Below are positions 23,044-64,000 of a DNA stretch of 64,000 nucleotides, in pieces (positions within the stretch are counted from its first letter, which is position 1; every line of letters begins with the position of its first letter). The position numbers and the translations under genes were made by a program. The notes below the pieces were generated by a model. It worked only from the letters and a program-made list of their open reading frames with translations, searched no databases and was not told the DNA's origin. This stretch comes from a virus, in IMG/VR virus record IMGVR_UViG_3300045988_171089. One strand, given 5' to 3'.

Positions 23044-23113
23044 AATTCACTATTTAGTGTTGTCAATTATCTAGTGTCTAAGTAAACAGTGTTTTGCTGT
23101 CTTCTTGACTTGC

Positions 23114-43057: not shown

Positions 43058-43111
43058 TTCGAGGGTTTCCTTTCATTGAAAGTGCCTGTTTGATTGTTGC
43101 GCATGTGACTG

Positions 43112-43504: not shown

Positions 43505-43664
43505 GTGGGTTATAGACCTTTCATAGAGGGGTATAGGGTAGTTGTTTAATGGGGTGCCCCTAGTGCAGGTCGGCTACTAGGGGCATGTTTGGGTGTTTTA
43601 GGCGGTTACGGTCAGGTGACATGTCGCCCAGTATACACTCTGGAGAGCGTGGGTGCCAGGTGGC

Positions 43665-44030: not shown

Positions 44031-44105
44031 CCTTTCGGTAGGTAGGTGTTAGTGTAGTTCTAGGCACCCCCAATGGGAGGGGTGCTGATAGGGGTTAGAG
44101 TAGGG

Positions 44106-44531: not shown

Positions 44532-44675
44532 AGTGTCCAGCCTTTCGGTAGGTAGTTAGTGGATTACGTGTTAGGGGTGATTCCCTAACGGCTTATATAA
44601 CTATTATGGCACACCCCTAACCCTTACGCAAGCTAAAATCATATGAAATAGCTCACATAAGGGTTATTTAAGGGG

Positions 44676-45905
44676 CTACTTATTAAATTCGGCAATGACT
44701 TGCAGGTTACCCCACAGCTCTAGTCGATTCGCCCCGGCTTCCTTCATATGGTATTCACGTTCGCGTTTCACCAGCTTGTGTACGTATTCCTTGAGGTTCT
44801 GAATACGGAAGATGTTTCCGTCTTCATACGATAGCTTACGGACTTCAGCGCCAATGCTAGACGTAAGCGCATGGAGCCAACCTGTATCCTTACTAGGGTC
44901 ACGGAAGTTTAGAAGCTCTTCAAACATCGTTTCACGCTGTCCCATAATGAGCTTATGGTAATCATCAACTAGTGCAGTGTCAGAGCTAGGCAAGATAGCA
45001 TAATCAAACACAGGAATAACGGTACCATCTTCCCAGATGAGCTGTAGAGACACGTTATAGTGGAACTCATGGTCACAGCCTGGCTGACAGTACGTGCCAT
45101 ACTCATCGTCATGCACAGAGACGACGGCTAGAGTGCTCGTTTCGCCGGTACTGAGGTCATTTAGTGTTACCTTTTGGCTAGTGCCGCCGGTGACCTGCAT
45201 GTATTGGGTTGCTACCCTTAGAATGTCACCAACCATAACACCAAGGTCTTGGGTTCCTACGATTCCGTCCTGTAGGTAGATGAACTCATTGCTCGGTTCA
45301 ACCTTGCTTGCTCGCACCTTATCCATGTAGGCGTTTACTCGCTTCTCGTCCTGCTGGGTGATGCGGTTAATAATGTGGGTTACTTCTTGGGTTGCCTTGT
45401 CATACTCAGCGGCAAGGTTACTAGTTTCTTCACTGAGGCAACGCATAATGTCATCTATAGTGTGTTCACTGTTCACTACATGCGGGTTGTTGTGGTACTG
45501 ATTCAAGGGTGCGGCGGGGTTACTGTGCTTAATCATTCGTCCACCGTCGGTCAGAATGTCATGCGCCTCATGTAGTGCGGCGTAGTACTTGTGGATATTA
45601 CGCTTAGTGGCTTCTTCCTTGCTGAAGTGCCCAATAATGTTTACCGGAGTGGACTTTGACGGCTTCGGGTCACGCTTCATCCACTTAGGGGAACTGTGAA
45701 TGATGTGCGTATAGTCGAAACCTTCAGCAGTAGTTCCGGGCTTGTATTCGATTGCGGTGCGGGTATCCCAGTAGGGGCTATCCTTCGTAGTGGAAATATT
45801 GCCGCTAGTGCCCGTGATAGTGTGCATACTGTAGGTGCCCCTCTTAGCATCACTAGCAATGATGGTATCACCAGGCTTCAGGGTGGGGTTATTGAGGTTG
45901 GTCAT
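44676..45905 (-). CDS. hypothetical protein (409 aa)
   Basis: ORF track; largest gene of the small-gene block. Confidence 0.55.
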   Translation of the reverse strand: MTNLNNPTLKPGDTIIASDAKRGTYSMHTITGTSGNISTTKDSPYWDTRTAIEYKPGTTAEGFDYTHIIHSSPKWMKRDPKPSKSTPVNIIGHFSKEEATKRNIHKYYAALHEAHDILTDGGRMIKHSNPAAPLNQYHNNPHVVNSEHTIDDIMRCLSEETSNLAAEYDKATQEVTHIINRITQQDEKRVNAYMDKVRASKVEPSNEFIYLQDGIVGTQDLGVMVGDILRVATQYMQVTGGTSQKVTLNDLSTGETSTLAVVSVHDDEYGTYCQPGCDHEFHYNVSLQLIWEDGTVIPVFDYAILPSSDTALVDDYHKLIMGQRETMFEELLNFRDPSKDTGWLHALTSSIGAEVRKLSYEDGNIFRIQNLKEYVHKLVKREREYHMKEAGANRLELWGNLQVIAEFNK

Positions 45906-46030
45906 AGTAGTTTAGGTTCCTTATCTTAGTGGGTGGGGCAGGGGTGTGGTACCCCTCTAAAGGTAGAAGCTTTCAGTGGTTGTGTAATCTTCATTCCCTT
46001 AGAGGGGTTACTGTGTGGCGCTGGTGACTG

Positions 46031-47054: not shown

Positions 47055-47618
47055 TTACCGTGCTAGTAGTTCCTTGATGTATGCTTCGTCGTCTAGCTTG
47101 TCTAGTTCTTTGTATTCGCCCTGAATTTCATTGTATGCCTTGAGGGTTTCGTGGCTGAGGTTCAGGTCGGTGTCGTCTACATTGGGTAGCGCGTTGATGC
47201 GTTGTACGTTGCTAATTAGGGATTTGGTGGCGGCGGTGAGGCGCTTGTTGCGTAGGGCTTCGTTGAGTTTGGTTGCGGCTTCTTGTCCGGCGCGTACCAT
47301 TTCGGTTGGCTGTTCAACGGTTTTTTCCTGTGCGGGGATGATTTGCTTGTCTAGTACCTTTGCGGTGCGGATTAGGTCGCTCTTGTAGGGATTGGTGCTT
47401 TCGTTGCCGCCTATGGCGCGCAGGGCTTCGATAATTTCTTCGAGGTCTTGACGGGTTGCCGTTAGGGTTGCTTTCGCCTGATACTGTAGGGCAATGTTGA
47501 TACCGTTTGCTTTGTTGATTTTTTTGAGCTCACGGTTTATCTTGCGGTCGCTGAGCATGAGGCGGATTCCTTTACGGGCGGGCTTTGAGGTGTTGAACAT
47601 TGGGCGTGTTCCTTCCAT
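47055..47618 (-). CDS. hypothetical protein (187 aa)
   Basis: ORF track. Confidence 0.5.
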   Translation of the reverse strand: MEGTRPMFNTSKPARKGIRLMLSDRKINRELKKINKANGINIALQYQAKATLTATRQDLEEIIEALRAIGGNESTNPYKSDLIRTAKVLDKQIIPAQEKTVEQPTEMVRAGQEAATKLNEALRNKRLTAATKSLISNVQRINALPNVDDTDLNLSHETLKAYNEIQGEYKELDKLDDEAYIKELLAR

Positions 47619-47634
47619 TAGGGGGGTCTGTTGT

Positions 47635-47985
47635 TTAGGGAATGTAGATAGTGTAGGTGTCGCTTTTTCCTAGATTTTCGAGGCGTAGGGCATGTTTGGC
47701 TAGTGCCTTGTAGTAGGCTGTTCGTCCGCGCTTATTCCAGCGGCGGGCGGCTCGACCTTCCTGTGTGATGGTTTTGATAGCGCCCAGCATAATATTTTGT
47801 GCATTTTGGCGTACCTGTGGGTATTCGGTGGTCATGATTACGGTTGAGGCACGCTTTTCCATGCAGGACAGTAGCCAGCCTACCTCTGGGGTAATGAGGC
47901 GGTTTAGGTTGTGTCCGCTTAGGGCGGGCTTACCGTAGTCTTTACTGTTGATTTTGGCGATAAGTTCTTGAATGTCCTTGTTCAT
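47635..47985 (-). CDS. hypothetical protein (116 aa)
   Basis: ORF track. Confidence 0.5.
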   Translation of the reverse strand: MNKDIQELIAKINSKDYGKPALSGHNLNRLITPEVGWLLSCMEKRASTVIMTTEYPQVRQNAQNIMLGAIKTITQEGRAARRWNKRGRTAYYKALAKHALRLENLGKSDTYTIYIP

Positions 47986-48341
47986 TGCTAGGTCTTTCCT
48001 TTCCTGTTGTGTGGCACTCTTCTTCTATATGGGTGCGTACTGATTATACCACCTTCGGGTGGTTTTACCCGCCTATTTGGGGTGATGTTATATGGGTGTG
48101 GGTTTGCCCCGCGTGTACCTTACGGATTGCACGCGGGGCGGGTGACTAATTGGGGCTAGTCTTCCTTGTATGCGCCGTCAATGAAGATAATGCCTTCGTC
48201 AATGCTTTCAATAGCCCAAAGCTACAGGTTGCCCCTATTGCGCCCAGGGTTCTAGGCACTCAACCACCCGAAATTAGCACCACCCAAAGCCCCTAGCGGC
48301 TAATTCCTTTAGCTACTAGGGGCTTTTTAGATAAATGCTTA

Positions 48342-48797
48342 CTAAGAGCCGTGCGCCTCATGTGCCTTATGGTATTCTTCAATGTCAGCAATGACTCCAA
48401 GACCTGAAACCATTGCCAGGATTCGCCCCAGCACCTGTGTAACAGTCTGGTCAATCACAATAGCACCATCAGAAGTAGACTCAGTGTTCTTAGGGCTAAC
48501 AAGGCACGCAATAGCACCCTCGGAATGATAACCCCATGAGGTGTCCTCGTCGTAGGTGTCGTACCCGTCGGTATCCCAAGTAATTTCTATAGGAGTGTCT
48601 TCAACCTCAAAGCAGATGCGGTTAATCTTATCAAGGCGCGGTAGGGTTACCTTGGTCTTGCTACTGTCTAGCTCAGATGCCCTGTGGAGTAGAATGATTT
48701 CATTAATGATGATGCCTGCGGGTCGCGGACTCGACAGATAGGTAACGAAACCTACCTTCTTGTTTCCGTATTCCATGATTCCCAGAGTCATGACCAT
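48342..48797 (-). CDS. hypothetical protein; start moved to ATG 48797
   Basis: ORF track 48342..48911; SD AAGAAAGGGG before 48797. Confidence 0.45.
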   Translation of the reverse strand: MVMTLGIMEYGNKKVGFVTYLSSPRPAGIIINEIILLHRASELDSSKTKVTLPRLDKINRICFEVEDTPIEITWDTDGYDTYDEDTSWGYHSEGAIACLVSPKNTESTSDGAIVIDQTVTQVLGRILAMVSGLGVIADIEEYHKAHEAHGS

Positions 48798-48841
48798 ACC
48801 CCTTTCTTGTGGGTGCTTGATGTTGTGGTTACTATGTAACG

Positions 48842-49306
48842 CTAGATGGATTCGCCAGAGATAGGCGTTAGGTGCTCTAGAAGGTTCGACCATTCCATAT
48901 TGCCCGCCCATTCCATAATGTGCCTGCGGGTATCCTCAAGGGTCTTACCGCGCCCCTGAAGCCTCTTAGCCAGGTAGGTGTCGTAAATGATGCACCACCA
49001 ATCCCACGACCCCTCTACGGGCGATTCCGTAAGTGCTTCTGCAAGTTCACCCGTAGTACAGTCGGTAAGCGCCTTATGAATCAAGGCGAACTGTGCCTCT
49101 CGAACATCCTTAGCGGTAGAGTCGCTAGGTAGTTCAGTGTCGATAAGTTGCCACGCCCCATGTAGGTTGCGGTCAGCCGTTATGCCGCGCGGCGTGATAG
49201 CCATTAGCTTATAGGTATCGCCCTTGGTTTCTACGGGTGCTAGGGCGTTCAGGAATACATCTAGGGCTTCCTGACTAGGTGCCCCGTTGCTAGTGAAGAT
49301 GGGCAT
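48842..49306 (-). CDS. hypothetical protein; start moved to ATG 49306
   Basis: ORF track 48842..49387; SD AAGAGGAAACC before 49306. Confidence 0.45.
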   Translation of the reverse strand: MPIFTSNGAPSQEALDVFLNALAPVETKGDTYKLMAITPRGITADRNLHGAWQLIDTELPSDSTAKDVREAQFALIHKALTDCTTGELAEALTESPVEGSWDWWCIIYDTYLAKRLQGRGKTLEDTRRHIMEWAGNMEWSNLLEHLTPISGESI

Positions 49307-49414
49307 AATGGTTTCCTCTTTCTGTGTTGCTAGAGTTGAAAATGGGTGCCCATATAGGGGGTGGTGCATAGTGAAAGTATGTACCATCCCCTATATGCTT
49401 GCATAGTTTAGGTA

Positions 49415-49798
49415 CTAGTGTGCTCGCCAATCCATGCGCTCACGTGTCGCCTTATCAACATTCTTTACAAGCTTATCAATCTTCTTGCCCCAGATGGTAG
49501 TTATCATGCCGCGCTTGTTCGGGTGAAGAGCCATATGACGGATAGGGTTAGGGTCAGTGAGAGCCTTGTTTAGCTCGATAATAAGGTTAGTCGCTTTCTT
49601 AATGAGGTTAAGGTGCTTATTGGCAATCTTATTTGCTTCACGCTCACCCTCCACGGTCAGCGTGTCATCACCCTTAGCGTCATTAATGTAAACAGCCAGG
49701 AGGAAGTTACCTTCCTTGAGGACGTTGAGGGCGCTCATAACGCGGTCAATATCTGAGAGAAGCAGGTCAGCAAGCTTATTCTTAGTAATAACGGACAT
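49415..49798 (-). CDS. hypothetical protein (127 aa)
   Basis: ORF track. Confidence 0.5.
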   Translation of the reverse strand: MSVITKNKLADLLLSDIDRVMSALNVLKEGNFLLAVYINDAKGDDTLTVEGEREANKIANKHLNLIKKATNLIIELNKALTDPNPIRHMALHPNKRGMITTIWGKKIDKLVKNVDKATRERMDWRAH

Positions 49799-49901
49799 GA
49801 TATAGTTTTCCTTTTCTTGTTTAGTAGTTGTTTGGTCTGTTAGCCCCGCCCCTGTGGTTAGGGGCGGGGTGCTAAGGGGGGCGGACTAGTTGAGCGGCTT
49901 A

Positions 49902-50219
49902 CTACTCTTCATCTTCATCTTCATCATCCCAGTATTCGTCTTCGTCTTCCTCAATTTCAGCGGTCAGATAACCTTCTTCCCAGTTGATTTCAAGGTCGTA
50001 ATAACCGTTCTTAATGAGGGCGCGCTCTTCGTCATAGGAACCGTTCACCTCAACCTCGACCGACTCAACGGATTCACCGTCTTCACTCCAGCGTGCGAGG
50101 ATATTGAGCCAATGGTTGCTGTTTTCGTAAATCTGGCTGGTACGGATTTCGTAACCCGCTTCGATTGCCTCGATAACTTCCTCGTGGTTCTTGAGTTCAA
50201 AGTATGCCATGATGGTCAC
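49902..50219 (-). CDS. hypothetical acidic protein (105 aa)
   Basis: ORF track. Confidence 0.5.
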   Translation of the reverse strand: MTIMAYFELKNHEEVIEAIEAGYEIRTSQIYENSNHWLNILARWSEDGESVESVEVEVNGSYDEERALIKNGYYDLEINWEEGYLTAEIEEDEDEYWDDEDEDEE

Positions 50220-50396
50220 CCTTCCGGTAGATAGGTAGTGGACTAGCTCTAGGGTGGTTTCCCCGTCGCCTTATATAACTATCATACCACACCCTAGCGG
50301 GTATGCAAGTCAGAATCATGTGAACCTAGTCACATTAGACCCTCTATAGGGAAAGACCCCCTATAAGCATTTCCTTATAGAGGGTCTTTCTTGCTC

Positions 50397-50684
50397 TTAG
50401 CTTTCCGCTTCTTCTGATAGCGAGTTTACAGCCCGCCCCTTCTCCCTAAGCTCATCATAGTACCGCATGGCATAACCAACGTAGGCGACGAATACAAAGA
50501 AGTAAACCTTGGTTACATAGATGATAACATTATTGACCACCGATAGGGCAGGGTCAGTTACCCAAGTTATAAAGATTGAGCTGATAACCATCAATGCAAG
50601 TAGTGTCGTGAATGTGTGGAGCATCTTACCGACCGGCGCGTTCTTACTGAATTTCCAACGCACACCACAACGGTGCGCGAACAA
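50397..50684 (-). CDS. small membrane protein (95 aa)
   Basis: ORF track; TM helices. Confidence 0.45.
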   Translation of the reverse strand: MFAHRCGVRWKFSKNAPVGKMLHTFTTLLALMVISSIFITWVTDPALSVVNNVIIYVTKVYFFVFVAYVGYAMRYYDELREKGRAVNSLSEEAES

Positions 50685-50756
50685 GAATACACCTACGGTA
50701 ATTAGTGCAAGGATAGCTACGCTAATAATGTTCGGAATGTCTATTTGGTGTGATTC

Positions 50757-51128
50757 CTACTCTTCCTCTGCTAGTTCTGCGAGATGCTTATCTAGCTCTT
50801 TCTCCATCTCTTCCGTAGTGTACTTTATACCAGAGGCATACCCGAGCATAAAACCAATAACCACGCCATAGGCAAGCATGGCAAGCAAGTTAATAGCTTC
50901 ACCTACGCCACCAAGCCCGTTAGCCTCGAGCCAATGGCGGAAAATAATCCTGGCGATAAGAATAAGGTTGATAAAGGGTACGACATAGAGGCATTTATCT
51001 AGTGTTGAGTTTTCACTGAACTTTAGGGAAACATTATTCTTAACGCATCCCACAAGCGATACTATAAGCCCTAGTGCAACAAAGGTAATGCTGAATACAT
51101 CACCTGATGTTAGGTGTAGTTCATTCAT
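50757..51128 (-). CDS. membrane protein (123 aa)
   Basis: ORF track; TM helices. Confidence 0.5.
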   Translation of the reverse strand: MNELHLTSGDVFSITFVALGLIVSLVGCVKNNVSLKFSENSTLDKCLYVVPFINLILIARIIFRHWLEANGLGGVGEAINLLAMLAYGVVIGFMLGYASGIKYTTEEMEKELDKHLAELAEEE

Positions 51129-51151
51129 GGTTCAGGTTTCCTTACTGTTTC

Positions 51152-51418
51152 TTAGCGGTCTTCGTCTAGACACCAACACTCATTATTGATGCAGTCTTCT
51201 TCGTCTTCTTCGAGCTTGCAGGTGTTGCCGGTGACAGTGGCGTAGAACGTGCGGTGGTATTCGTATTCCCCGAGGGTGTTTTCGTAGGTGACGAAGACCT
51301 TAATGGGGCTTCCTTCACCGTCGATAGGCTTACCGATTTCAATTTCGATAATGCGGTTATCCTTGTTTGAGTATTCGCTCTTGATTGCTTCTTCAATAAG
51401 GGTTGTAGTGGTGCTCAT
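51152..51418 (-). CDS. hypothetical protein (88 aa)
   Basis: ORF track. Confidence 0.45.
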   Translation of the reverse strand: MSTTTTLIEEAIKSEYSNKDNRIIEIEIGKPIDGEGSPIKVFVTYENTLGEYEYHRTFYATVTGNTCKLEEDEEDCINNECWCLDEDR

Positions 51419-51518
51419 TGGGCTCAGGTTCCTCTCTAAGGGACTTTCTATGGATTAACTAGTACTTGTTCCCCCTATACGGTTATTGCGCCTTATAGGG
51501 GGTACTAGGGGCTTTGGG

Positions 51519-51845
51519 TTAGATTTCCCATTCGCCGCTACTAATAGATACGGTGCCGGTCACCCAGTCGATTGACTCGAAGGCGGCGTTATAGTCACCA
51601 CCGAAACCGCTAAGGATATTATATGCATCGAAGCTGTCGCCGCGTAGTTTAATCTTGAACTTTTCGCCGCCTGCAAGAACGGTCATGCGCGCCTTGGAGG
51701 TCTTAGCGTCGGGCTTGAAGCTGGGGAGGTGTAGCTTAACCTTGAGCTTGCTAACTAGCGGCTTATTACCTTGTGCAATGAGCTGGGTGAGTCGCTTAGG
51801 GGTGTTGAAATAGAACTCTAGCCCGTAAAATTCCATGATGCCCAT
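51519..51845 (-). CDS. hypothetical protein (108 aa)
   Basis: ORF track. Confidence 0.5.
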   Translation of the reverse strand: MGIMEFYGLEFYFNTPKRLTQLIAQGNKPLVSKLKVKLHLPSFKPDAKTSKARMTVLAGGEKFKIKLRGDSFDAYNILSGFGGDYNAAFESIDWVTGTVSISSGEWEI

Positions 51846-51941
51846 GATGGTTACATTCCTTTCAATGTGTGTTGTAAAAAGGGGTTCCGGTTTCCCCTGT
51901 AGTGCTTGTTTACTACAGGAGAAACCGCTTAGGGGTTTGGT

Positions 51942-52337
51942 TTAGAACCAGCCGGTATCCTGCGGGAAATTCTCGATATTGATGTACAGGTAGAATCCGG
52001 CGGTGTCAAACTCTGCATTGTAGCCAACAAGGTTATGAACGTCCATTAGGTCGTAGATTGCGGCTTCACCACGGTCGGGGTACTGCAAGTAAGCGGATAC
52101 CTCATACGACTCACCCTTATACTCGATTTCCAACGGTACACCATTGCCGTCGTGGAAGGTGAAGCGCCGCTTCTTATCGTCCGGCGTGTAGGTGGTGGTT
52201 ACATGCTTTGCGTTCTCAACAATGAAGTCACGCACATCCTTTTCAGCCATGCCGGGCACAATATCAACGAGGGCGTGGAACTCAACGCCGCCGGGAAAGT
52301 TGATTACGGATTCGCGGATGGTGTTCATGATTAGCAC
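51942..52337 (-). CDS. hypothetical protein (131 aa)
   Basis: ORF track; conserved leader and promoter upstream. Confidence 0.5.
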   Translation of the reverse strand: MLIMNTIRESVINFPGGVEFHALVDIVPGMAEKDVRDFIVENAKHVTTTYTPDDKKRRFTFHDGNGVPLEIEYKGESYEVSAYLQYPDRGEAAIYDLMDVHNLVGYNAEFDTAGFYLYINIENFPQDTGWF

Positions 52338-52506
52338 CTTTCAGTAGATAGATAGTGAAAGTAGTAGTAGAGGTTTCCCTCTTGCTTATATAACTATTAT
52401 GACACAACCGTTAGGGGTATGCAAGTTAGAATAATGTGAATTACCTCACATAGGGGCTAGGGGTGAGACAGGGTTAGGGGGATTACTCGCCCTATTTGCA
52501 AAATAC

Positions 52507-52968
52507 CTAAATGAATGTAATGCTCATGCGTTCCTTATCGAACTTAACGGGTTGCTCAGTCTGATTTTCCATCATCTCACGGAAACGTTCTGCCTGTTCG
52601 CCTTCCTTGACATGGATAAGTGCTGAAATATCATAATTATATGCATAGTAATAATCATGAACCTCGGCGGCAATGAAGCAATGGTCATCAGGGTTGTTCG
52701 GGTTGCTACTATCAAGTAGTGCAATTTCAAATACCTCAAAACCCTCGGGGATTTCATGGCTTTCCGTAAGGCTGTGGAAGCCAAGGTATTTATAGACATT
52801 CTGGTTGCCAAATTCTTCCATAACGCCAATATGGGTGATATTGTCTGCAATGAGGTCTGCGAGGTATTCAGTGGGAAGCGAGTCATACAGGGGGTCGCCC
52901 CATTCGCGCATAGGATTGTAAAAGAGTGAGCAAGTTCCGTGATAGCCCTGCATCTTATAGGTTTCCAT
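52507..52968 (-). CDS. hypothetical protein (153 aa)
   Basis: ORF track. Confidence 0.5.
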   Translation of the reverse strand: METYKMQGYHGTCSLFYNPMREWGDPLYDSLPTEYLADLIADNITHIGVMEEFGNQNVYKYLGFHSLTESHEIPEGFEVFEIALLDSSNPNNPDDHCFIAAEVHDYYYAYNYDISALIHVKEGEQAERFREMMENQTEQPVKFDKERMSITFI

Positions 52969-53062
52969 GAATGTCTTTCCTTTCTGAAAGTAACGGGGTT
53001 AGGGGATTCCCTAACCCCTATCTTCCATTCAGATAAACGTTAGGGGTGTTATGGGTTGCTGT

Positions 53063-53467
53063 TTAGCGGTATTCTACGCGCTCATTTTCCCAATATAGGG
53101 CGACGGTACAGAAGATAATACTCTGTGCTTCCTCGTCAATGTCTCGCACCAGAACGGTTCCTCCTGATACGTTACGGGTTGCCATGTACTCAATAAGCTT
53201 CGGGTCTTCACTAAGTACCGCAATTTCGCCGGTAATCCGCTCATATGTTTCATCATTGCTTACAGACAGGCGGAAGTCGTCTTCGTTGAGTAGGATTCCG
53301 TCGTAGCGTTCCTTCTCTTCGTTCCAGCGGACAATGAAACAGGCAATATAGGTGCCCTTGAATACCTGGGCGACTTCCTCGAAAGTGAACCCGTCGATTG
53401 AGTCTGGAGTGAACCGGAAGAAAATGCCGTTTGTTTCGTACTTTTCGGTGTAGTTAATATTGTTCAT
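53063..53467 (-). CDS. hypothetical protein (134 aa)
   Basis: ORF track. Confidence 0.5.
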   Translation of the reverse strand: MNNINYTEKYETNGIFFRFTPDSIDGFTFEEVAQVFKGTYIACFIVRWNEEKERYDGILLNEDDFRLSVSNDETYERITGEIAVLSEDPKLIEYMATRNVSGGTVLVRDIDEEAQSIIFCTVALYWENERVEYR

Positions 53468-53548
53468 TGTTGGTGTCCTTTGTTGCGTATAGGGTTACCC
53501 CCCTATGGTGGGTAGAAACCATAGGGGGGGTGGTACTGGGGGTTTGGG

Positions 53549-54067
53549 TTACTCAGTACCCAGCACTTCGTTGCCCTGTCGCTTGGTGTCTTCGTAGCGG
53601 TGCATGAGGGTGACGAACTCACGCTCGAAGATGCGTGCCTTCTTCTTGTGTGCGTTCAGGGCGGCGGTGAGGCGTGCTACCTTCATTTCTTCGAGGTTGG
53701 TCATACCCTTCTCTTCGTAAGGTTCGGTAGCGAAGTCGCCGCTACGGATTTCCTTAATGTCGTCGGTTGCAACCACGCGGTAGAGGTTTACACGGTTTGC
53801 GAACTTGTGGAGGTCGGTTACAAGCTGGCTGGATTCGATAGAGTGCCCCAGCTTGTCATCACTGAAAATGTCGCCGTCGATAGTGTCTGCAAAGCCCTTG
53901 CCGTAAGAGCGAATCATCACGTCCAACTGCATACGGTTAGGCTGGCGCTGGAATACGTTAGCGTGTGCGCGGCTCATGATTTCCCAGTCAGCCATACGCT
54001 TCAGGGCTTCAGCACCAATACGGTCGGTGAGGGTGTTGATGGTGTCGTTCAGGTTTGCGGTGGTCAT
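53549..54067 (-). CDS. hypothetical protein (172 aa)
   Basis: ORF track. Confidence 0.5.
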   Translation of the reverse strand: MTTANLNDTINTLTDRIGAEALKRMADWEIMSRAHANVFQRQPNRMQLDVMIRSYGKGFADTIDGDIFSDDKLGHSIESSQLVTDLHKFANRVNLYRVVATDDIKEIRSGDFATEPYEEKGMTNLEEMKVARLTAALNAHKKKARIFEREFVTLMHRYEDTKRQGNEVLGTE

Positions 54068-57092: not shown

Positions 57093-57121
57093 GTTGATTC
57101 TTTCTAGGGGTCATGTATTGC

Positions 57122-57141
57122 GGGGGGGGCACTCCCCCCCC
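57122..57141. other. G8-CACT-C8 perfect hairpin / homopolymer pair
   Basis: gggggggg cact cccccccc directly upstream of gene 56676..57092. Confidence 0.5.
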
Positions 57142-57299
57142 TGTTCGCTCCAAAGAGGTGGGGGCCTTATGGGTCTTACGGTGCGACTGAGATGGTATAG
57201 TTCTGGTACATTGCCGCAAGGCGCTCGCAAACCACCCAAAAACAACCCCTACAGGTTGATTATAGACCCCAAAAATGAAGAAAATGCACCCCAGTGCAT

Positions 57300-58440
57300 A
57301 ACGCACTGACAAGGGAAAAGGCTACTTTCCACACAGGGCCAGATACCCAAAAAACCACCCAAAACCATTATACCAAAAAACAACCCCAAAAACAGGCAAA
57401 AACCACCCCCAAAAACCCAAAAAAAACACCCAAAACAGACCACACCCCACCAACAACACCCCCAAAACACCCACCACAAAAACACAAAACCCCCCGACAA
57501 GGCAAAAGACACAAAAACATACACACAGACACAACACCAAAAAACAAAAAAGAACAACAGAACACCAGGGCACCTAACCACCCGGCACCCACCACACTAC
57601 CCCGCCCTACCTTACCCTACCGCCCTCCTTTAACCTCCTCTACCCCTCCACCCTTTCTAGCCCTTACCCCTACCTTACCCTTTATTACCCTGCCCCCTGT
57701 CTAGCCTTCCTTTACCCTTGTTCCCTTACTGTGTGTGTCTGTGTGTTCTCTCTATGTATGTGTTCTGTCTAGCTGTTCTTTTGTTCTGTATGTGTGTTCT
57801 CTTTCTGTCTAGCTTTTGTGTTGTTCTGTCTAGCCTGTTGTTCCCCCCTGTGTGTGTTCGTCTGTTATGTATCTGTGTCTATTGGGTCTGTGTTCTGTGT
57901 CTGCTGTGTGTCTGCTTATTGTGCCCCCTTGTGTGTTCTCTTATGTGTGTCTACTGTATGTGTCTTATATATGTGTGGCGTGTATCTGTTATTGGTCTGT
58001 GTGTCTGTGCTTGTGTCTTGCTTACTGTGTCTGTGTGTACTGTGTACTGTGTACTGTGTATCTGTGTCTCTTATATGTATGTGTGTGTTATTCCTGTGTG
58101 TACTGTGTCTGTGTTCTATGTGTGTTATGTATCCTCTCTATTCTGTATGTGTATCTGTGTGTCTGTGTTCCTTATTTCTTGTGTATGTTCTCTGTTCTTG
58201 TTCTGTGTTTGTGTTGTTGGTTACCCTGTTGGTGTGGCGTTTATCATGGTGGTGTGATGGGCGCTTGTTTTTTGGGTTTGGTGGTTTTGGTTTTTTGGGG
58301 GGTGTGGCGTGTGTGGAATTTTTTTATTTTTTTATTCACGGTTCCTGGTGGGTGGTCGTCTTTTGCTAGGTTTTTGTTATCGCACATTTTTTTGCGGGCT
58401 CCCCTGGGGTTTGTGTCGCGCCCGAAATTTTTTTAAAGAT
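57300..58440. repeat. extreme low-complexity, strand-asymmetric non-coding island: top strand A/C-only (57300-57590), C/T-only (57590-57720), then G/T-only with TG/TCTG microrepeats (57720-58440)
   Basis: Near-total absence of G/T then of A/C on the top strand; all six frames open (no stop codons possible), so ORF-track entries here are compositional artefacts. Confidence 0.7.
58395..58435 (+). terminator. plus-strand intrinsic terminator candidate (hairpin CGGGC...GCCCG + TTTTTTT)
   Basis: gcgggctcccctggggtttgtgtcgcgcccg followed by aaattttttt. Confidence 0.4.
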
Positions 58441-58846
58441 ATAACACACTCATACTGTGGTTATGTGATACTTGTGATGAGCTTATATATGCCTCTGTTG
58501 GCGTACTTATACCACACCCTGCATTGTTCTGATATTGCACCCGTTTATACTTGTGCCCGTGTCTGCCTTTGCCTGTGTTCGTATCTGCTTGCGTCTATGT
58601 CACCCCCGTGTTTCATTCCATGTTGCCCCGGTATTGTGTCTACTCTTATACCTTGTCTTGTGTCTACTTGTGCTTGTAGTATGTTTTAGTATGCCGTGGG
58701 TTACACCCTGTGTTGTGTGCCTACCTCTAGTGTTTAGTGGGTGTGCCGTATAGGGTGTGTTACTTGTTGTGGTGTGTTTCACTTGCTGGTTTTATACCCC
58801 TTTTTTCTTATGTCTGTTTGTTCTTTTGGAAGGATTGTGTTTACTG

Positions 58847-60430
58847 ATGTCTACCCGCCTTATTGATGCTGATACCCCTAGTGTTGGTGGTTCTGTTATT
58901 GAGTCTACTGGTGTTGGTGCTGATGCTACTTTTGTTAATGCTTGGTGCCCTGGTAGTGTTGCTTCTGCCCCTGATGGTGTTCTTTCTGGCGGTGGTGTTC
59001 TTTACACCCCTTCTACCCCTGCTGGGTCTGGTGATGGTGTTTCTGGGGGTGTTCTTTCTGTGCCTGGTTTTGTTCAGGTGGGGTGGGGTTCTTCTGGGTG
59101 GGGTGTGTCTTCTAGTGGTAGTATTTTGTCTCATGTGGAGGAGGCTTGGGGGTATGGTTACTCGTTTGTACCCCCTGTAGACCCTGTAGAGTCTTCTGTG
59201 GGGTCTTTTATGTCTGGGGTGGGTGATTGTGCCTCTGGTGTGTTTGAGCGCCACCGTGAGCCGTCTGTGGGTTCTGGGTCTGTTTTGGGTGTTGAGGTGC
59301 CTGTTTCTAGTGTTTGGGATGGGTTTTTGGTGTCTGTTGGTGGTGTGTCTTCGGGTGGTGGTGTTGTGTCTACTAGTGGTGGTGTGCCTTTGTCTTTTGT
59401 GGAGGGGGCTTCGGGTGTTTTGGGTTGTGTTTCTGGTGGTGGTTTGTCTGTTGTTGGTGGTGTTGGTGTGCCTTTGTGGGAGGGTTTTGTTGCTGATTTT
59501 TCGGGTTTGAGTGTTACGTCTGCTGGGTTTGGTGCGTTGCCTTTTGGTGGTGGTTCCACTTCTGGTGGGTCTGCTAGTGGTGATGCTTTGGTGGGTTGTT
59601 TTCCTTTGAGTGTTGATGTGTGCCCTAGTGTTGGGGCTGGTGTTGTTGGTGTTTCTGGTGGTTCTGTGGGTGTGTCTTTGGCGGGTGTTCCTGTGGTGTA
59701 TGGTGTGTCTGGTTTTGGTGGTTTTTCTGTGTCGTGGGGTTTGTCTTCGGCTTCTTTGGGTGTTTTGTCTGTTGGTGGTGGGGGTTCTGGTTGGCGTGGT
59801 GTTTTGGGTGTTTCGGGTTTGGGTGCTGGTGGTTTTGTGCCTGGTGTTGTTGGTGTTTCTGGTGGTGTTGGGGTTGGTTCTGAGGTTGTTGTTGATGGTG
59901 TGACTCATAGGGGTTTGGTGTTTGGTTCGCGTTTGGCTCCTGGGGGTTTTGTTGATGTGGCGGGTTCTGTTGGGGTTGGTGCGTCCGGGTCTGTTGATGG
60001 TGTTGCATTGGTTGATGTGTCTGATGTTGAGTTTGGTTCTGTTGGTGGTTTGGGTGGTGTTTCGCCTGTTGGTGGTAGGGTTGCTGGTTTGGGCCGTTTC
60101 GCCGGTTGGTGGCTTGTTCGTAATTGGGTTGGGTCTGTTGTTGGTGGTGTGGGTCGTGCCGCTTGGGGTGATGTTGTAGGGTCTGTTGGTGTGGGTTCTG
60201 TGCCTGGTTCTACTGGTTTGGGTTTGGGGTTTGTTGCTGGTAGTGAGGGTTATGGTTCGCCGGTTGGTGTTGTGAATGGTGGTGGTGGTTCTGCTGGCTT
60301 GTTTGGTGGGTCTGTTGGGGTTGGTGCCGGGTTTGTTGGTGGTGTTGTTGATGTTCCGGTTGGTTCGCCAGTGGTGGGTTTGGGTGTTGATTTGGTGGAT
60401 GTTGCCGGGTTTGTGTCTGACCTATTGTAG
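58847..60430 (+). CDS. Gly/Val/Ser-rich low-complexity protein (528 aa) on the opposite strand to all other genes; codons almost exclusively NNT/NNG
   Basis: ATG 58847 preceded by SD GGAAGGA; strong 3-nt periodicity with T at third positions (ggt gtt tct gct gat ...); terminator hairpin 60486-60530 directly downstream; ORF track extends upstream to a GTG at 58757. Confidence 0.5.
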   Translation: MSTRLIDADTPSVGGSVIESTGVGADATFVNAWCPGSVASAPDGVLSGGGVLYTPSTPAGSGDGVSGGVLSVPGFVQVGWGSSGWGVSSSGSILSHVEEAWGYGYSFVPPVDPVESSVGSFMSGVGDCASGVFERHREPSVGSGSVLGVEVPVSSVWDGFLVSVGGVSSGGGVVSTSGGVPLSFVEGASGVLGCVSGGGLSVVGGVGVPLWEGFVADFSGLSVTSAGFGALPFGGGSTSGGSASGDALVGCFPLSVDVCPSVGAGVVGVSGGSVGVSLAGVPVVYGVSGFGGFSVSWGLSSASLGVLSVGGGGSGWRGVLGVSGLGAGGFVPGVVGVSGGVGVGSEVVVDGVTHRGLVFGSRLAPGGFVDVAGSVGVGASGSVDGVALVDVSDVEFGSVGGLGGVSPVGGRVAGLGRFAGWWLVRNWVGSVVGGVGRAAWGDVVGSVGVGSVPGSTGLGLGFVAGSEGYGSPVGVVNGGGGSAGLFGGSVGVGAGFVGGVVDVPVGSPVVGLGVDLVDVAGFVSDLL

Positions 60431-60485
60431 GGTTCGTGTCCGGTTTTGGGTTGGTGTTTTATTTGGTGTTTTGGGTGTTAGTAAA

Positions 60486-60530
60486 CCCCCGGTGCCTGTG
60501 TTGTTCAGGTTGCCGGGGGTTACTTTGTAC
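60486..60530. terminator. hairpin (CCCCCGGTGCC...GGTTGCCGGGGG) + T-rich tail; terminator for plus-strand gene and probably for minus-strand gene 60559..61152
   Basis: 36-nt core identical to the hairpin at 61269-61301. Confidence 0.5.
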
Positions 60531-60558
60531 CTAGAGGGGGTAATGGTTAGTGTATTGC

Positions 60559-61152
60559 CTAGTGTAAGGCGGTGCTGATGTCTAGGTATAGTAGTAGGTT
60601 GTTGATTTCTTCGTCTAGTTTTTCGGGGTATTCGTTGAGGTATTCCATGATGCTGTACCCGCCATGTTGTAGGCTTTGGCGTGTGAGGCGTATTGCTACT
60701 TCCCAGGGGTAGCAGTAGATTTTTCCGGGGCTGGGGTAGTCTAGGTGGGTTTTGATGATTTTCTGGATTGCGTGGTCGATAGTTCCGTCTTTGAACTGGA
60801 AGGCGGGGTAACCTTTGGGTTTATTGTGGTCGTCAAGTTTGAGGATGAGGTGGTCATTTACTAGCTGATTCAGCTCTTCTTTGGTGATGTTGAGGTATTT
60901 ACAGGTAGTGGTTGTATTGTAGAGTTTGCCTACGGTGTTGAGGATTTGTTCTTTAGGGGTTTGTTGGGGTTGGTGCTGGTATTCGAGGACGTATTTTGCA
61001 ACGGTGGCTTTTAGTTTGAAGGCTAGGTCGTTGCAGTTTTCTGTGGTGATATTGAGGTTGCCGTGGGTGGTTAGGCAGTCGATGTATTCGGTGATTTCTT
61101 TCTTTACGATTTCGGTGGGTGCGGGGTTGTTGTTTGCTTCCGCGTGGGTCAT
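60559..61152 (-). CDS. hypothetical protein (197 aa)
   Basis: ORF track. Confidence 0.5.
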   Translation of the reverse strand: MTHAEANNNPAPTEIVKKEITEYIDCLTTHGNLNITTENCNDLAFKLKATVAKYVLEYQHQPQQTPKEQILNTVGKLYNTTTTCKYLNITKEELNQLVNDHLILKLDDHNKPKGYPAFQFKDGTIDHAIQKIIKTHLDYPSPGKIYCYPWEVAIRLTRQSLQHGGYSIMEYLNEYPEKLDEEINNLLLYLDISTALH

Positions 61153-61268
61153 TAGGGTTCCTTTCAGGTAAGTTTAGGGGTGTCGGTGTGACACTTATAG
61201 GTGTAGATTACCACACTGGATAGGTGTGTACAACTTTCTTGTTCTTGGTGTGGCTGGGTGCCGTGAAT

Positions 61269-61311
61269 CCCCGGTGCCTGTGTTGTTCAGGTTGCCGGGG
61301 GTTTCTTTTTG
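61269..61311 (+). terminator. hairpin + TTTCTTTTT (plus-strand intrinsic terminator form); second copy of the repeated hairpin
   Basis: ccccggtgcctgtgttgttcaggttgccgggggtttcttttt. Confidence 0.45.
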
Positions 61312-61341
61312 CGTATGTGGCGTGGTGTTGATTGCGCCTGC

Positions 61342-61566
61342 TTATTTGCTGTTTTCGAGTGCCACAGAGACACTTTCGTATGGTGTGTTGGGGTGGTTTT
61401 CGTACTCGTATTCTGGGGGTTCTGACATTGCGATGTTGTTTACCCAAGCCCTCCAGTCGTATTCCTCTTCGTTGGTTTGCCAGCCTGGTTCCCCTGGGTA
61501 TTGTTCTGGTTCGTTGCCTATGGTATCGGTGGGCTCGTAGCTACAGTTGATGTGGTAGAAGCTCAT
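61342..61566 (-). CDS. small hypothetical acidic protein (74 aa)
   Basis: ORF track. Confidence 0.4.
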   Translation of the reverse strand: MSFYHINCSYEPTDTIGNEPEQYPGEPGWQTNEEEYDWRAWVNNIAMSEPPEYEYENHPNTPYESVSVALENSK

Positions 61567-61627
61567 GGTGGGTGTTCCTTTTCTGGGTGTGGGATACGTG
61601 GTTTCTGTGTTGAAAAGGTAGTATGAA

Positions 61628-61675
61628 GCCCCGGTAACCTGTGTTTTGTTTGGGTTGCCGGGGCTTATTGTATTT
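61628..61675. terminator. third copy of hairpin family (11-bp stem CCCCGGTAACC/GGTTGCCGGGG) with T-rich tail
   Basis: Variant of the 60486 and 61269 hairpins. Confidence 0.4.
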
Positions 61676-61678
61676 GGG

Positions 61679-62239
61679 TTACTTTCCCTGTTTGGGGTCG
61701 ATGAGGATTTCGATTCGGTTGCCCCAGTCAGTCCAGATGAGGTTTCCTACGGGGTAGGTCTTACTGTCTAGGTTAAGCCATTCTTTCATGGTTAGCCCTC
61801 CCCATCCACCCTCTAGGTAGGTTGTCATTGACGCACCTACAGGGTTTTTGCCTTCGGGGTCGTTGGTGAAGATTGCGTCAATTCCGATTTCACCAATGCC
61901 GTTTTCGATTTCGTCTTCATCACCGGAGTTTACCCATACGTTGAGGTGGGCGTACATCTTGTAGGGGGTGTTGTTCACCTTTTGGTGTTTGCTTGCATGG
62001 AACGCCATGAGGAGTGCTAGGTGCCTGGCGGCCTCGGAGTATGGTTCGGCTTTGACGAATTTTCGTTGGGGTTCGTCTAGGTTAAAGTGTCCGGGTAGAT
62101 TGACCCAGCCTGCTTTGTGGAGCTCGATGTCTCGCTTGATGATGTTGTTGAAGCTGGGGTTGTCGGTGGCATTTTCGTTGCCTCCCCAGAAAATGTAGCT
62201 GGCGAGGGTGTCTTCGTAGGTGATGGGTTTCTGTGCCAT
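61679..62239 (-). CDS. hypothetical protein, paralog of 63329..63892 (186 aa from ATG 62239)
   Basis: Both end ...I(E/T)ILIDPKQGK and share PYKMYAHL(N/D)VW; ORF track start 62722 adds a 160-aa His/Arg/Pro/Gln low-complexity artefact from the C/A-rich strand. Confidence 0.55.
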   Translation of the reverse strand: MAQKPITYEDTLASYIFWGGNENATDNPSFNNIIKRDIELHKAGWVNLPGHFNLDEPQRKFVKAEPYSEAARHLALLMAFHASKHQKVNNTPYKMYAHLNVWVNSGDEDEIENGIGEIGIDAIFTNDPEGKNPVGASMTTYLEGGWGGLTMKEWLNLDSKTYPVGNLIWTDWGNRIEILIDPKQGK

Positions 62240-62322
62240 TTTGTCTTTCTTTGTTGGGTGTTTTGGGGTACCGGTGTGGCACCTGTAGGTATAGGTTACC
62301 ACACCGGCTAGGGGTATGCAAA

Positions 62323-63219
62323 CTATTCGGTGTAGGGTATGGTGTAGTCTTCGGGGTCGGGTTCGTACCATTCGGATTGTTCGAGTTTTTTGATGACGTT
62401 GTTTAGCATTGTGGTGAGTTGTTTTTGTTGTTTGGGTGTTAGGTTTTTGCTGTTTGGGGTTTGGGGGTCGGTGCTGTTGGTGAGGTGTTTTAGCTCTTCT
62501 GCGTAGTCGATGGTGTAGTCGATGATGAGGTCGTAGGAGACTCCCCATGCGTAGCCGTCGCTGTAGTCGGTGCTGATTTGTTCCCAGTATGTGTCGGTTA
62601 GGTAGTCGGTGGTTAGGGTGGTTTCCCAGTCTTCGCCTTTGACGGCTTTTTGTTTTAGGGTGTTCCAGTGGGGGTGGTTGATGATGGTTTTTAGGGCTTT
62701 TGCCGCGTCGTGGGGTACACATTCTGTGTTGTTGTTGTTTAGGTAGAATGTGTGGATGGGGGTTAGGCTGTTGGTGTTCGTGTTGATTTCTTTTTGTAGT
62801 TGGGGTGTTAGGTGTACTCGTTTTTGGGTGGGGCTGGTTTGTGATTGTACTAGGGTTACGTCTGGGTTGATGGTTTCTATGGTCTTCCAGATGTTGATGT
62901 CTTCGTCGTTGTTTTTGGTGATGATGGTGTATTCGGGTTTGTTGGTGGTGGCTTTTATGGTGTTGTTGTTGTGGGAGTTGAGGTCGATGATTTGGGGTGT
63001 TCGGGTGTTGTGTACTGGTGTGGTGGTGGTTAGGGTTCCGTTGTGTAGGGTTGCGGTGATGGTTTGGGGTGCGGTTGCGCTGTTGGTGGTGTGCTTGCGT
63101 TCGGCGGTGATGGTGTCACCGTCAATGTGGGTTACTTTGTATAGACTTTTTTCGTTGTTGTTTTGCAGGATGAACGCTTCGCTTACGGTTAGGGTGTGGG
63201 GTGCTAGGGGGATTCGCAT
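62323..63219 (-). CDS. Thr/Asn-rich hypothetical protein (298 aa)
   Basis: ORF track; composition mirrors the local G/T enrichment of the top strand. Confidence 0.5.
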   Translation of the reverse strand: MRIPLAPHTLTVSEAFILQNNNEKSLYKVTHIDGDTITAERKHTTNSATAPQTITATLHNGTLTTTTPVHNTRTPQIIDLNSHNNNTIKATTNKPEYTIITKNNDEDINIWKTIETINPDVTLVQSQTSPTQKRVHLTPQLQKEINTNTNSLTPIHTFYLNNNNTECVPHDAAKALKTIINHPHWNTLKQKAVKGEDWETTLTTDYLTDTYWEQISTDYSDGYAWGVSYDLIIDYTIDYAEELKHLTNSTDPQTPNSKNLTPKQQKQLTTMLNNVIKKLEQSEWYEPDPEDYTIPYTE

Positions 63220-63328
63220 AGTGTTTTACTCTCCTTGGGTTTGGTGTTGGTGGTTTAGTGGTGGGTACTGTTTAGGGCACCCCCTACTTGTTAGTTTAAG
63301 GGGGTGCCCTTTGTTGGTTTACAGGGGG

Positions 63329-63892
63329 TTACTTGCCCTGTTTGGGGTCAATAAGAATTGTGATTTCCTTACCCCAGTCAGTCCAGATAGGGGTTCCGAT
63401 GGGGAAGGTTTTACCGTCCAACTTGACCCATTCTTCGGCGGTGAGTCCGGCGTAAGTGTCGTCCCATTCAAAGCCCAGGTAGGTAAACATTGCTACACCA
63501 ATCTTGCGCTTACCTTCAGGGTCACTAGTGAAGGTAACATCAACCCCAAGTTCACCAATACCATCCTCATCTTCGGAGTTCGCCCATACGTCAAGGTGGG
63601 CGTACATCTTGTAAGGGGTGCCAGTTTCCTTCTGATGCTTACTCGCAAGGAACTTGATAAGGTGTGCAAGGTGCTTACCGGTTTCGGTGCCCTGTTCAGC
63701 CTTCACGATTTCTCGTTGGGGTGCATCTAGTTCAAAGGTGCCAGGGATTGATACCCAACCTTCCTCGCGGAGCTCGTTCTCGCGCTCAGCAATGTTCTTG
63801 CCGGTCTGGTCTTCCTTATTAGGGTTGTCGGGTGAGGTGTAGAAGACGTAGTACTTGCTAATGTTTTCGTAGGACAGATGGTTCTTTGCCAT
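63329..63892 (-). CDS. hypothetical protein, paralog of 61679..62239 (187 aa)
   Basis: See 61679..62239. Confidence 0.55.
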   Translation of the reverse strand: MAKNHLSYENISKYYVFYTSPDNPNKEDQTGKNIAERENELREEGWVSIPGTFELDAPQREIVKAEQGTETGKHLAHLIKFLASKHQKETGTPYKMYAHLDVWANSEDEDGIGELGVDVTFTSDPEGKRKIGVAMFTYLGFEWDDTYAGLTAEEWVKLDGKTFPIGTPIWTDWGKEITILIDPKQGK

Positions 63893-64000
63893 GTTTTACT
63901 CCTTGATAGTGGATTTTTGCAGTCCCGTTCTTGGAACCTCTACACATAGAGTAACATACAAGGTATCCCGCGTGCAACAGCAAAGGGTACCCCCTACTAG

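Follow-up and report, generated by a model that had tools for sequence, protein, structure and literature searches.

A bipolar two-letter composition island around a non-coding hub in human oral jumbo phages, possibly maintained by selection on the DNA itself

Strand compositional asymmetry is usually taken as a passive mutational footprint and, as such, is used to locate replication origins. Can the same explanation serve for an asymmetry that is confined to a few kilobases (kb), reverses its sign at one point and comes close to saturation? The question is raised by one end of a 64,000-nucleotide (nt) stretch of viral DNA, IMG/VR record IMGVR_UViG_3300045988_171089 (hereafter the window, with positions counted along its top strand), in which an earlier note had described a composition island at 57100–63900 and had explained it as the near-saturated footprint of deamination at a bidirectional origin. 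The answer toward which we lean, tentatively, is that the island is a compositional element acting at the DNA level and maintained by selection in a clade of oral jumbo phages, built around a divergent control hub that is also a candidate site of initiation. The asymmetry found here is local, bipolar and near saturation, with a substitution pattern that points to selection.

Compared with a baseline of 500-nt windows over positions 1–57000 (top-strand G+T 0.527 ± 0.060), the 11 windows of that size between 58001 and 63500 have G+T contents of 0.65–0.86 (z 2.1 to 5.6), and the enrichment of the top strand runs to about 63.3 kb inside the window. The broad description of the island and of its segments given in the earlier note is borne out, with some overstatement. 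The top strand is rich in A and C at 57300–57590 (A 0.50, C 0.37, A+C 0.87, reaching 0.91 in the core at 57340–57585) and in C and T at 57590–57720 (C 0.51, T 0.29, A 0.145, G 0.05, that is, 80% C+T). The segment 57720–58440, said to consist almost exclusively of G and T, has a G+T content of 0.77 (T 0.50, G 0.27, C 0.15, A 0.08) with C making up 15%, and it is not free of stop codons in six frames, as had been stated, but contains 1–3 stops in each plus frame and 7–12 in each minus frame. TG and TCTG microrepeats are indeed present there, but the (TG)n stretches, 15 of which reach three units or more, are short and broken by TCT and CTG, and no long uninterrupted alternating purine–pyrimidine runs of the Z-DNA-type (TG)n kind were found in the G+T tract, contrary to the suggestion that it is prone to form Z-DNA. 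Farther to the right, G+T is 0.82 at 58847–60430 (G 0.40, T 0.42, C 0.13, A 0.05) and 0.72 at 60431–63328. The cumulative keto (G+T) skew has a local minimum at 57697, the T−A and G−C skews change sign at 57596 and 57729, respectively, and the keto-rich strands run 5' to 3' outward from this point, in agreement with the switch originally placed near 57.65 kb. Within the island, the 'forbidden' bases persist in functional elements, namely the G+C hairpins, the promoter hexamers and the CTGTCTAGC repeats described below.

The bias belongs to the DNA strand and not to the direction of the genes. In the region extending to about 71 kb, the top-strand keto content of third codon positions is 0.94, 0.92, 0.77, 0.67, 0.55 and 0.55 in six plus-strand genes and 0.87, 0.79, 0.77, 0.93, 0.73, 0.61, 0.71, 0.65 and 0.55 in nine minus-strand genes; it exceeds 0.5 in 15 of the 15 genes and is clearly above the window baseline (0.52 ± 0.13) in 13, so that the indifference of the G+T enrichment to gene direction, already noticed from the raw sequence, is upheld. 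Outward-pointing genes use codons ending in G or T and inward-pointing genes use codons ending in A or C. The spacers carry the same bias, which in them and in the untranslated hub is at its most extreme. Because both gene directions and the spacers are affected alike, transcription-associated asymmetry and any rule that operates separately on each mRNA are excluded as explanations of the pattern.

Near-exact and exact protein look-ups lead to the human oral metagenomes ERR589685 and ERR589668 (PRJEB6997, 'human.oral.metagenome'), and relatives of the window sit on contigs of up to 383 kb; the window represents an uncultivated human-oral jumbo-phage lineage of a 200–380 kb family. Fourteen related loci (designated by L numbers) from independent metagenome assemblies were compared, on contigs of 28–383 kb, one of them in IMG/VR and one in a GenBank assembly. 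All 14 have the same design, in which a leftward promoter block (promL), an A+C tract, a pyrimidine-rich bridge, a G+T tract and a rightward promoter block (promR) follow each other in this order. In every relative, the polarity switches within one 250-nt step, the top-strand A+C content of the locus passing from 0.7–0.9 to 0.12–0.3, and the skewed zone measures 15–20 kb, with about 5 kb on one side and 10–15 kb on the other. Deeply diverged members of the clade, including those with 197-amino acid (aa) proteins that are only ~50% identical, have a skew of the same or greater strength. An assembly artefact was considered and is ruled out by the 14 loci from independent assemblies and by the ERR589685 assembly, which spans the junction at 57213 discussed below.

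The island centres on a non-coding hub, about 1.2 kb long, that includes the divergent promoter blocks. On the left, promL (57232–57340, minus strand) contains TATAAT at 57259–57264 (minus strand) with small hairpins on both sides; it is 93–98% identical in all close relatives and is found two to three times on their left arm, preceding each leftward G+T-coded gene, including one of 433 aa. The adjoining A+C tract (57340–57590, A+C 0.91) is the sole remnant, in the window, of the arm with reversed polarity; its composition is kept in all relatives, its sequence over the first ~60 nt only. The pyrimidine-rich bridge (57590–57720) contains short direct repeats of the type CCCTACCTTACCCT (repeat family D18) and has diverged in sequence in L009, L011 and L014, with its C+T composition and its strand kept; since deamination of neither strand can produce such a tract, it is presumably functional. 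Four exact direct copies of CTGTCTAGC begin at 57697, 57765, 57805 and 57826 on the plus strand (span 57697–57834, hence within 138 nt), preceded by a degenerate copy at 57653, and a single further exact copy exists in the 64 kb. Repeats of the form TGTCTARC are found in the same order in four copies in L007, L009 and L011 and in three copies in L002, and are absent from L013–L015, where L014 has only the TCTAG core; the CTGTCTAGC repeats are candidate protein-binding sites.

To the right of the repeats, the low-complexity G+T(+C) tract (57720–58230), made up of degenerate TG, TCTG and CTGTGT microrepeats, can be aligned with close relatives, with large indels, and distant relatives share its composition but not its sequence. 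It is followed by a hairpin and a T run (58237–58275, plus strand), which are terminator-like in the scan and invariant across relatives including L009 and L011. The top strand of this element folds with 12 pairs (z −5.5) and the bottom strand more weakly (z −3.8), three G·T pairs of the stem, as paired manually, becoming A·C mismatches on the bottom strand. The block promR (58200–58480, plus strand) has TATAAC at 58440–58445 after an A/T run and is 92–95% identical in close relatives and 79% identical in the L009–L012 clade; its position and conservation make it a putative promoter. The conserved promoter blocks escaped a scan for consensus promoters and were read by eye and by conservation. 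The hub as a whole is 87–95% identical among close relatives, with large indels in the low-complexity tracts, and the sequences of the tracts diverge in L009–L012 and further in L014 and L015, with the order A+C, C+T, G+T and the strand kept. Judged from these alignments, the conserved character of the hub is its composition, not its sequence. A giant hairpin or cruciform at the hub was also considered and rejected, as the single-strand fold pairs only the A+C arm with the G+T arm, and weakly so (−94 kcal/mol over 1031 nt).

In the relatives, the left arm consists of 4–6 kb of outward-pointing, G+T-coded genes with the opposite polarity. In the window, the A+C arm extends over only about 290 bp; homology to the relatives stops at 57213, with ordinary composition and genes beyond, and Logan contig L017 (run ERR589685) reproduces this junction. 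The 433-aa gene in L002 (16725–18516, and its equivalents elsewhere) is flanked by two ~107-bp copies of the promoter block, and such copies could mediate left-arm deletions like that of the window. To the left of 57213 and just upstream of the first leftward gene, the window has a perfect G8-CACT-C8 hairpin (57122–57143) that is without counterpart in the relatives. With increasing distance from the hub the skew weakens, and no genome-scale polarity switch was found either in the 64-kb window or in relative L013. The 57 kb to the left of the hub have a top-strand keto content of 0.53; the cumulative keto skew of the window rises on both sides of a dip of ~250 units at 57.3–57.7 kb, and the reversed arm of L013 stops at about 5 kb, beyond which the composition is again mildly biased with the sign of the far side. 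The switch is thus a local feature and not the global turning point that the origin model of the earlier note called for.

How far the composition reaches into the proteins is seen from the genes on the right arm. The plus-strand open reading frame (ORF) at 58847–60430 encodes a 527-aa protein rich in Gly, Val and Ser (G 26%, V 21%, S 15%), with codons of the forms NNT (68%) and NNG (26%) together amounting to 94%; the six codons from which it was said to be built almost entirely (GGT, GTT, TCT, GCT, GAT and TTG) account for 57%. It is a real, weakly constrained gene. A codon model trained on the window's ordinary genes ranks it first among the six frames, its A+C content varies with period 3 (0.15, 0.33 and 0.08 by codon position), 11 of 11 indels among nine orthologues are multiples of three, and the ratio of nonsynonymous to synonymous divergence (pN/pS) is 0.61–0.76. 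About 45 clusters of homologues at or above ~70% identity exist, most of them on contigs of 250–300 kb. AlphaFold predicts no fold for the protein (confidence score, pLDDT, 25), which is probably disordered. It is plausibly the window's only plus-strand gene, as proposed earlier, since the credible genes in 1–57 kb are all on the minus strand and every other plus-strand ORF there is outscored by a minus frame in the codon model.

The minus-strand genes of the island encoding 197, 74, 186 and 298 aa have A or C at 77–93% of third positions, and T, N, Q, H, P and K make up 0.33–0.49 of minus-strand island proteins vs a baseline of 0.28. The earlier characterization of the genes at 60.5–63.9 kb as C/A-rich in the coding sense therefore holds for these four and fails for the gene at 63329–63892, which has an ordinary composition and makes the skew patchy. 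This gene (187 aa, minus strand, third-position keto 0.55; '187a') is 53% identical to its skewed paralogue, the 186-aa gene '187b' (61679–62239, minus strand, third-position keto 0.77), a contrast which implies that pre-existing genes were pulled into the two-letter alphabet. No ordinary-composition patch like 187a is present in the distant relatives L014 and L015. Beyond the right end of the window, a plus-strand gene encoding 542 aa (~65.07–66.70 kb in window coordinates, from L001) has an omega of 0.13–0.15 and G or T at 92% of third positions.

Is the composition being produced by mutation at present? Seven close sequences were aligned over 57.2–71.2 kb, and singletons were polarised by the majority state. 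Instead of the C-to-T and A-to-G bias that the deamination model predicts for related phages, per-site rates in the strongly skewed part are nearly symmetric (C to T 0.058 vs T to C 0.055; A to G 0.069 vs G to A 0.048) and the net flux is in the opposite direction, with 204 keto-to-amino (A or C) singletons vs 83 amino-to-keto singletons and a keto-to-amino excess in seven of seven lineages. The equilibrium keto content implied by the singleton rates is 0.56 vs 0.76 observed. At third positions of the 527-, 298- and 542-aa genes, with the L009–L012 clade as the outgroup, young changes number 61 keto-to-amino and four amino-to-keto, a ratio compatible with symmetric rates at a keto content of 94% (p = 0.8) and incompatible with the balanced flux that a mutational equilibrium would produce (p = 4 × 10−14). 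Older, shared changes are distributed 37:14 (Fisher p = 0.0035 vs the young class), and on longer branches in two other subclades amino-to-keto changes have a per-site advantage of 1.8–2.1 fold, the trees behind all these counts being blurred by recombination. Synonymous divergence (pS) of the most skewed genes is 0.09–0.22, which is 2–5 fold lower than in their unskewed neighbours when the same two genomes are compared (0.46–0.52). The pattern suggests a bias in fixation, of which selection on composition is the simplest explanation, rather than ongoing strand-specific mutation or a single event that is now decaying. The two observations that the earlier note had named as evidence against its own model, a lack of any genome-wide switch at this point and related phages with the same kind of low-complexity sequence free of substitution asymmetry, are what we find, and its fallback, a selected or functional low-complexity element, is the interpretation that the data favour. 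Its intuition of a geometry directed outward from the hub may be right; passive deamination as the cause is not supported.

What could such selection act on? That the two arms mirror each other around a non-coding hub suggests a polar process, indifferent to gene direction, which would start at the hub and travel outward along both arms; the best candidate is DNA synthesis that would initiate at the hub, with the outward strands displaced. Selection would then keep the displaced strands and their complements without Watson–Crick self-complementarity and without most recognition sites. Strands written only in G and T, or only in A and C, offer no Watson–Crick partners to themselves and so contain no hairpins or palindromes, and about 3% of all 6-mers can occur in such DNA. 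Structure-free displaced strands, restriction stealth of an early segment, priming and the polarity of a translocase are possible targets of the selection, whose object, like the initiation role of the hub, we infer. More boldly, and with less confidence than we place in the general proposal, the composition itself may be the selected trait, in which case a two-letter-per-strand zone around a bidirectional initiation or control hub, with about 15 genes recoded and with any single strand or transcript unable to self-pair and almost devoid of recognition sites, would represent an undescribed class of element.

Several points weigh against selection on composition around an initiation hub. The initiation role is read from geometry, and the surroundings of the hub yielded neither a replication gene nor an initiator or DnaA-type box; the island proteins have no Pfam, PHROG or NCBIfam matches of a credible family and no initiator was recognised among them. 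The left arm is absent from the window, where genes of ordinary composition abut the hub, and 187a is unskewed within the island across close relatives, whereas purely positional selection should have skewed both 187a and the abutting genes. The older substitution classes still show a net erosion (37:14), so that an equilibrium is not demonstrable, and slow erosion or rare episodic bursts of re-skewing are possible. Parsimony in biased sequence overcounts changes from common to rare states, an effect that we estimate to be too small to account for the 61:4 ratio, and the low pS of the skewed genes could come in part from recent recombination or from the reduced alphabet.

Among the alternatives, the one that survives best, though we consider it unlikely, is relic or episodic hypermutation, in which the outward strands would once or occasionally have been single-stranded at the hub and deaminated (C to U, A to hypoxanthine), either spontaneously or through a single-strand DNA deaminase of the host, with slow erosion thereafter. 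The polarity is the one predicted for deamination of displaced strands, the skew declines away from the hub, and the present flux (204 vs 83) erodes it in all lineages. However, a burst is seen on none of ~14 terminal branches, the skew is as strong or stronger in deeply diverged members, and 197-aa alleles that are 51% identical have kept a skew which a decaying relic should have lost. The older changes are enriched in the amino-to-keto class, contrary to simple decay, and the central pyrimidine tract cannot be produced by deaminating either strand.

A slightly weaker candidate is stealth DNA, whereby two-letter strands that lack most restriction and recognition sites, with palindromes absent and asymmetric sites in one orientation only, would protect the first-entering or first-expressed segment before anti-restriction functions are available. 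Per 6 kb, there are 13 6-bp palindromes in the island, 39–48 in control segments elsewhere in the window and 94 under a uniform expectation, and the island surrounds strong, repeated, divergent promoters; the site avoidance known from phages T7 and T5 would be a precedent. However, the palindrome deficit of the island follows automatically from the skew and does not constitute independent evidence; nor is there anything in stealth that calls for a single polarity per arm or for a mirror-image reversal at the hub. The control segments outside the island (10000–16000, 40000–46000 and 48000–54000) are themselves well below the uniform expectation, and this depletion across the whole window suggests a genome-wide restriction avoidance.

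It is quite improbable that the hub represents the joined physical ends of a linear genome that replicates by strand displacement from its termini, with assemblies closed through a terminal repeat or a concatemer. The polarity is the one that end-initiated strand displacement would leave where the two ends are joined, the composition of the A+C and G+T tracts is like that of an inverted terminal repeat, these tracts pair weakly with each other as folded single strands, and several scaffolds begin 7–13 kb from the switch. Yet the 14 related loci and contig L017 all read through the hub with the same bridge, contig ends do not fall at the hub, the skew decays over 5–15 kb and not towards the middle of the genome, and the substitution spectrum opposes a mutational cause. 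Very improbable, too, is a bidirectional origin with ongoing strand-specific deamination and a skew at mutational equilibrium, the model of the earlier note. In favour of this model are the outward course of the keto-rich strands on the two arms, the 57 kb of leftward genes, which likewise all point away from the switch, and the direct repeats and pyrimidine tract at the centre; it founders on the lack of a genome-scale switch in the window and in L013, on the similarity of the forward and reverse per-site rates together with the rejected balanced flux, and on the persistence of an unskewed gene within the island. Finally, a cause at the level of transcription, be it mutation of the non-template strand or selection for unstructured A/C-only or G/U-only early mRNAs, can hardly be credited, because, although the first gene after each divergent promoter block is G+T-coded and neither kind of RNA forms Watson–Crick helices, nine minus-strand genes with promoters of their own have an A+C-rich coding strand (the opposite of transcription-associated asymmetry, and of the transcription-coupled cause once suggested), a uniform polarity of ~15 genes is unexpected if each mRNA chose its alphabet independently, and the skew is greatest in the hub, between the divergent promoters.

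Further elements lie on the right arm. Between the convergent 527-aa and 197-aa genes, a G+C hairpin at 60484–60521 (repeat family D13) folds on both strands (z −4.4 to −4.7). Related hairpins with G+C stems are located at 60484–60521, 61266–61303 and ~61630–61665, at gene 3' ends and with top-strand loops of G and T only. Since these hairpins at gene 3' ends fold equally well on both strands, all three are likely bidirectional terminators, and they are among the few places in the island that keep A and C on the top strand. The 197-aa gene (60559–61152, minus strand, third positions 0.87 A+C) occurs as three allele types, 51–67% identical, all with third-position A+C of 0.82–0.87. The allele types are sharply distinct, number at least three and occupy the same locus in otherwise ~90%-identical genomes. 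The protein has 92 homologue clusters and a helical C-terminal domain that is confidently predicted by AlphaFold (pLDDT up to 92); the model has no fold match in the PDB. A promoter-like GTGTGGTAAYCTNNACCTA at 61198–61216 (minus strand) lies within a sigma-70-type layout, TTGTAC-17-TAATCT, and a second copy at 62286–62304 (minus strand) lies within TTGCAT-17-TAACCT; these are the two exact matches of GTGTGGTAAYCTNNACCTA, each just upstream of the start of a minus-strand gene, with the hexamers read by eye. A promoter class that would separate G+T-coded from A+C-coded genes was considered and dropped, as the 542-aa gene has an ordinary extended −10 element. The A+C-coded 74-aa gene (61342–61566, minus strand) has a top-strand third-position keto content of 0.79 and a position that is conserved in relatives. 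The Thr/Asn/Gln-rich 298-aa gene (62323–63219, minus strand; third positions 0.93 A+C) has a pN/pS of 0.5–0.65 and a pS of 0.08–0.10. The gene 187a (63329–63892) is the most divergent of the locus (64–88% amino acid identity, pS 0.24–0.52); it and the 197-aa gene may be arms-race loci.

To the right of the window (L001 1–6162, ~65.1–71.2 kb; farther out in L002 and L004), a conserved cluster adjoins the island. It encodes the 542-aa protein, which is weakly MobC-like, a T2SSE/VirB11-type ATPase, an AAA_31 protein (ParA/CpaE-like) and an AAA_10/HerA-like ATPase, and resembles a module for DNA transfer or partition, an unusual feature in a phage. The match of the 542-aa protein to NF041423 (MobC/replication-relaxation) has an E-value of 6 × 10−5 and 22 bits against a cut-off of 200, covers residues 426–509 only and, being below the cut-off, is a lead and does not establish membership. 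Species-representative bacterial genomes scanned with this protein gave no match and hence no lead to a host. Nucleotide and protein searches of cultured-phage records gave no match to the island, and IMG/VR scans with two ordinary proteins of the window gave none either.

The rest of the window has a minus-strand array of 15–16 transfer RNA (tRNA) genes at 20068–23370, within which a tRNA-like gene (22225–22297) has an odd anticodon loop; an isolated tRNA-Lys(ttt) at 8927–9002 overlaps the 5' end of the ORF at 7881–9014. Six of the tRNAs decode Lys, Asn, Thr or His, the amino acids favoured by A/C-only codons. A scan of the window at Rfam gathering thresholds detected tRNAs only. A 554-aa TnpB/IS605 OrfB-like protein with a Cas12f-like TNB domain (18381–20045) adjoins the array, and other recognisable proteins are TROVE/Ro60-like with a vWA domain (2916–4517), PspA/IM30 (9225–10112), SPFH/flotillin (31197–32780) and an RNA ligase (12664–13731); most other ORFs of the window were assigned no family in Pfam, PHROG or NCBIfam. 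Moderately A+C-coded minus-strand genes also occur far from the hub, at 47055–47985, 900–1736, 26066–26932 and 30524–31147 (third positions 0.63–0.80); the two genes at 47055–47985 are not paralogues of those island genes that were compared with them.

If selection on composition around the hub is indeed what maintains the island, then the nucleotide alphabet can be a selected property of DNA that is able to reshape the proteins of a dozen genes, as exemplified by the 542-aa gene, which is under tight purifying selection and yet has 92% G or T at third positions. The locus would provide a test bed for two-letter DNA and RNA in cells, with respect to structure-free single strands, invisibility to restriction and priming; for the start of replication or early expression in abundant, uncultivated oral jumbo phages; and for the question whether genes can be born from sequence with hardly any stop codons.

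How does the island compare with known systems? Avoidance of palindromes is general in phages, the EcoP15I sites of phage T7 are reportedly all in one orientation, and the first-step-transfer DNA of phage T5 is said to lack EcoRI sites. These cases resemble the island in that selection acts on the statistics of the DNA rather than on proteins, but avoidance in T7 and T5 removes particular sites, whereas the island recodes a region to two letters with a mirror switch; we know of no case of restriction avoidance that involves a two-letter-per-strand region or a mirror-image reversal of polarity. The RSF1010 oriV combines iterons with the strand-specific initiation hairpins ssiA and ssiB on opposite strands and supports strand-displacement replication. 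The hub has similar central direct repeats, an outward-strand hairpin on the right and small hairpins in the left promoter block; unlike an origin of this type, it has no linked initiator, helicase or primase gene, and its repeats are absent in distant members. To our knowledge, no iteron-type origin has a flanking compositional island.

With human oral jumbo phages, which are known as a group (10.1101/2020.07.06.186817; PMC7782811), the island phages share their source and size class. The main texts of both papers are without the word 'skew', and that of PMC7782811 also without the word 'strand'; full-text literature searches yielded no description of such an island in phages. Among the nearest phenomena is the strand asymmetry of vertebrate mitochondria, with a GT-rich H strand, an AC-rich L strand and third codon positions that are strongly AC-biased (PMC1794132). 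The alphabets are the same as in the island, the bias at silent sites is comparable and amino acid usage is dragged along in both; in mitochondrial DNA, however, the asymmetry is genome-wide and reflects strand-biased mutation tied to the time spent single-stranded, whereas the island is bipolar and local and has a symmetric young spectrum. The replication skew at bacterial and phage origins agrees with the island in that the G+T-rich strand runs 5' to 3' away from the switch on both sides and that synonymous and non-coding sites are biased irrespective of gene direction. It differs in that the island is restricted to ~5 kb on one side and 10–15 kb on the other in a genome of ~300 kb, reaches 92–94% at third positions and is accompanied by neither a genome-scale change of sign nor a mutational asymmetry. 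We regard the island as a variant of strand compositional asymmetry, with a substantial chance of being a new kind of functional element.

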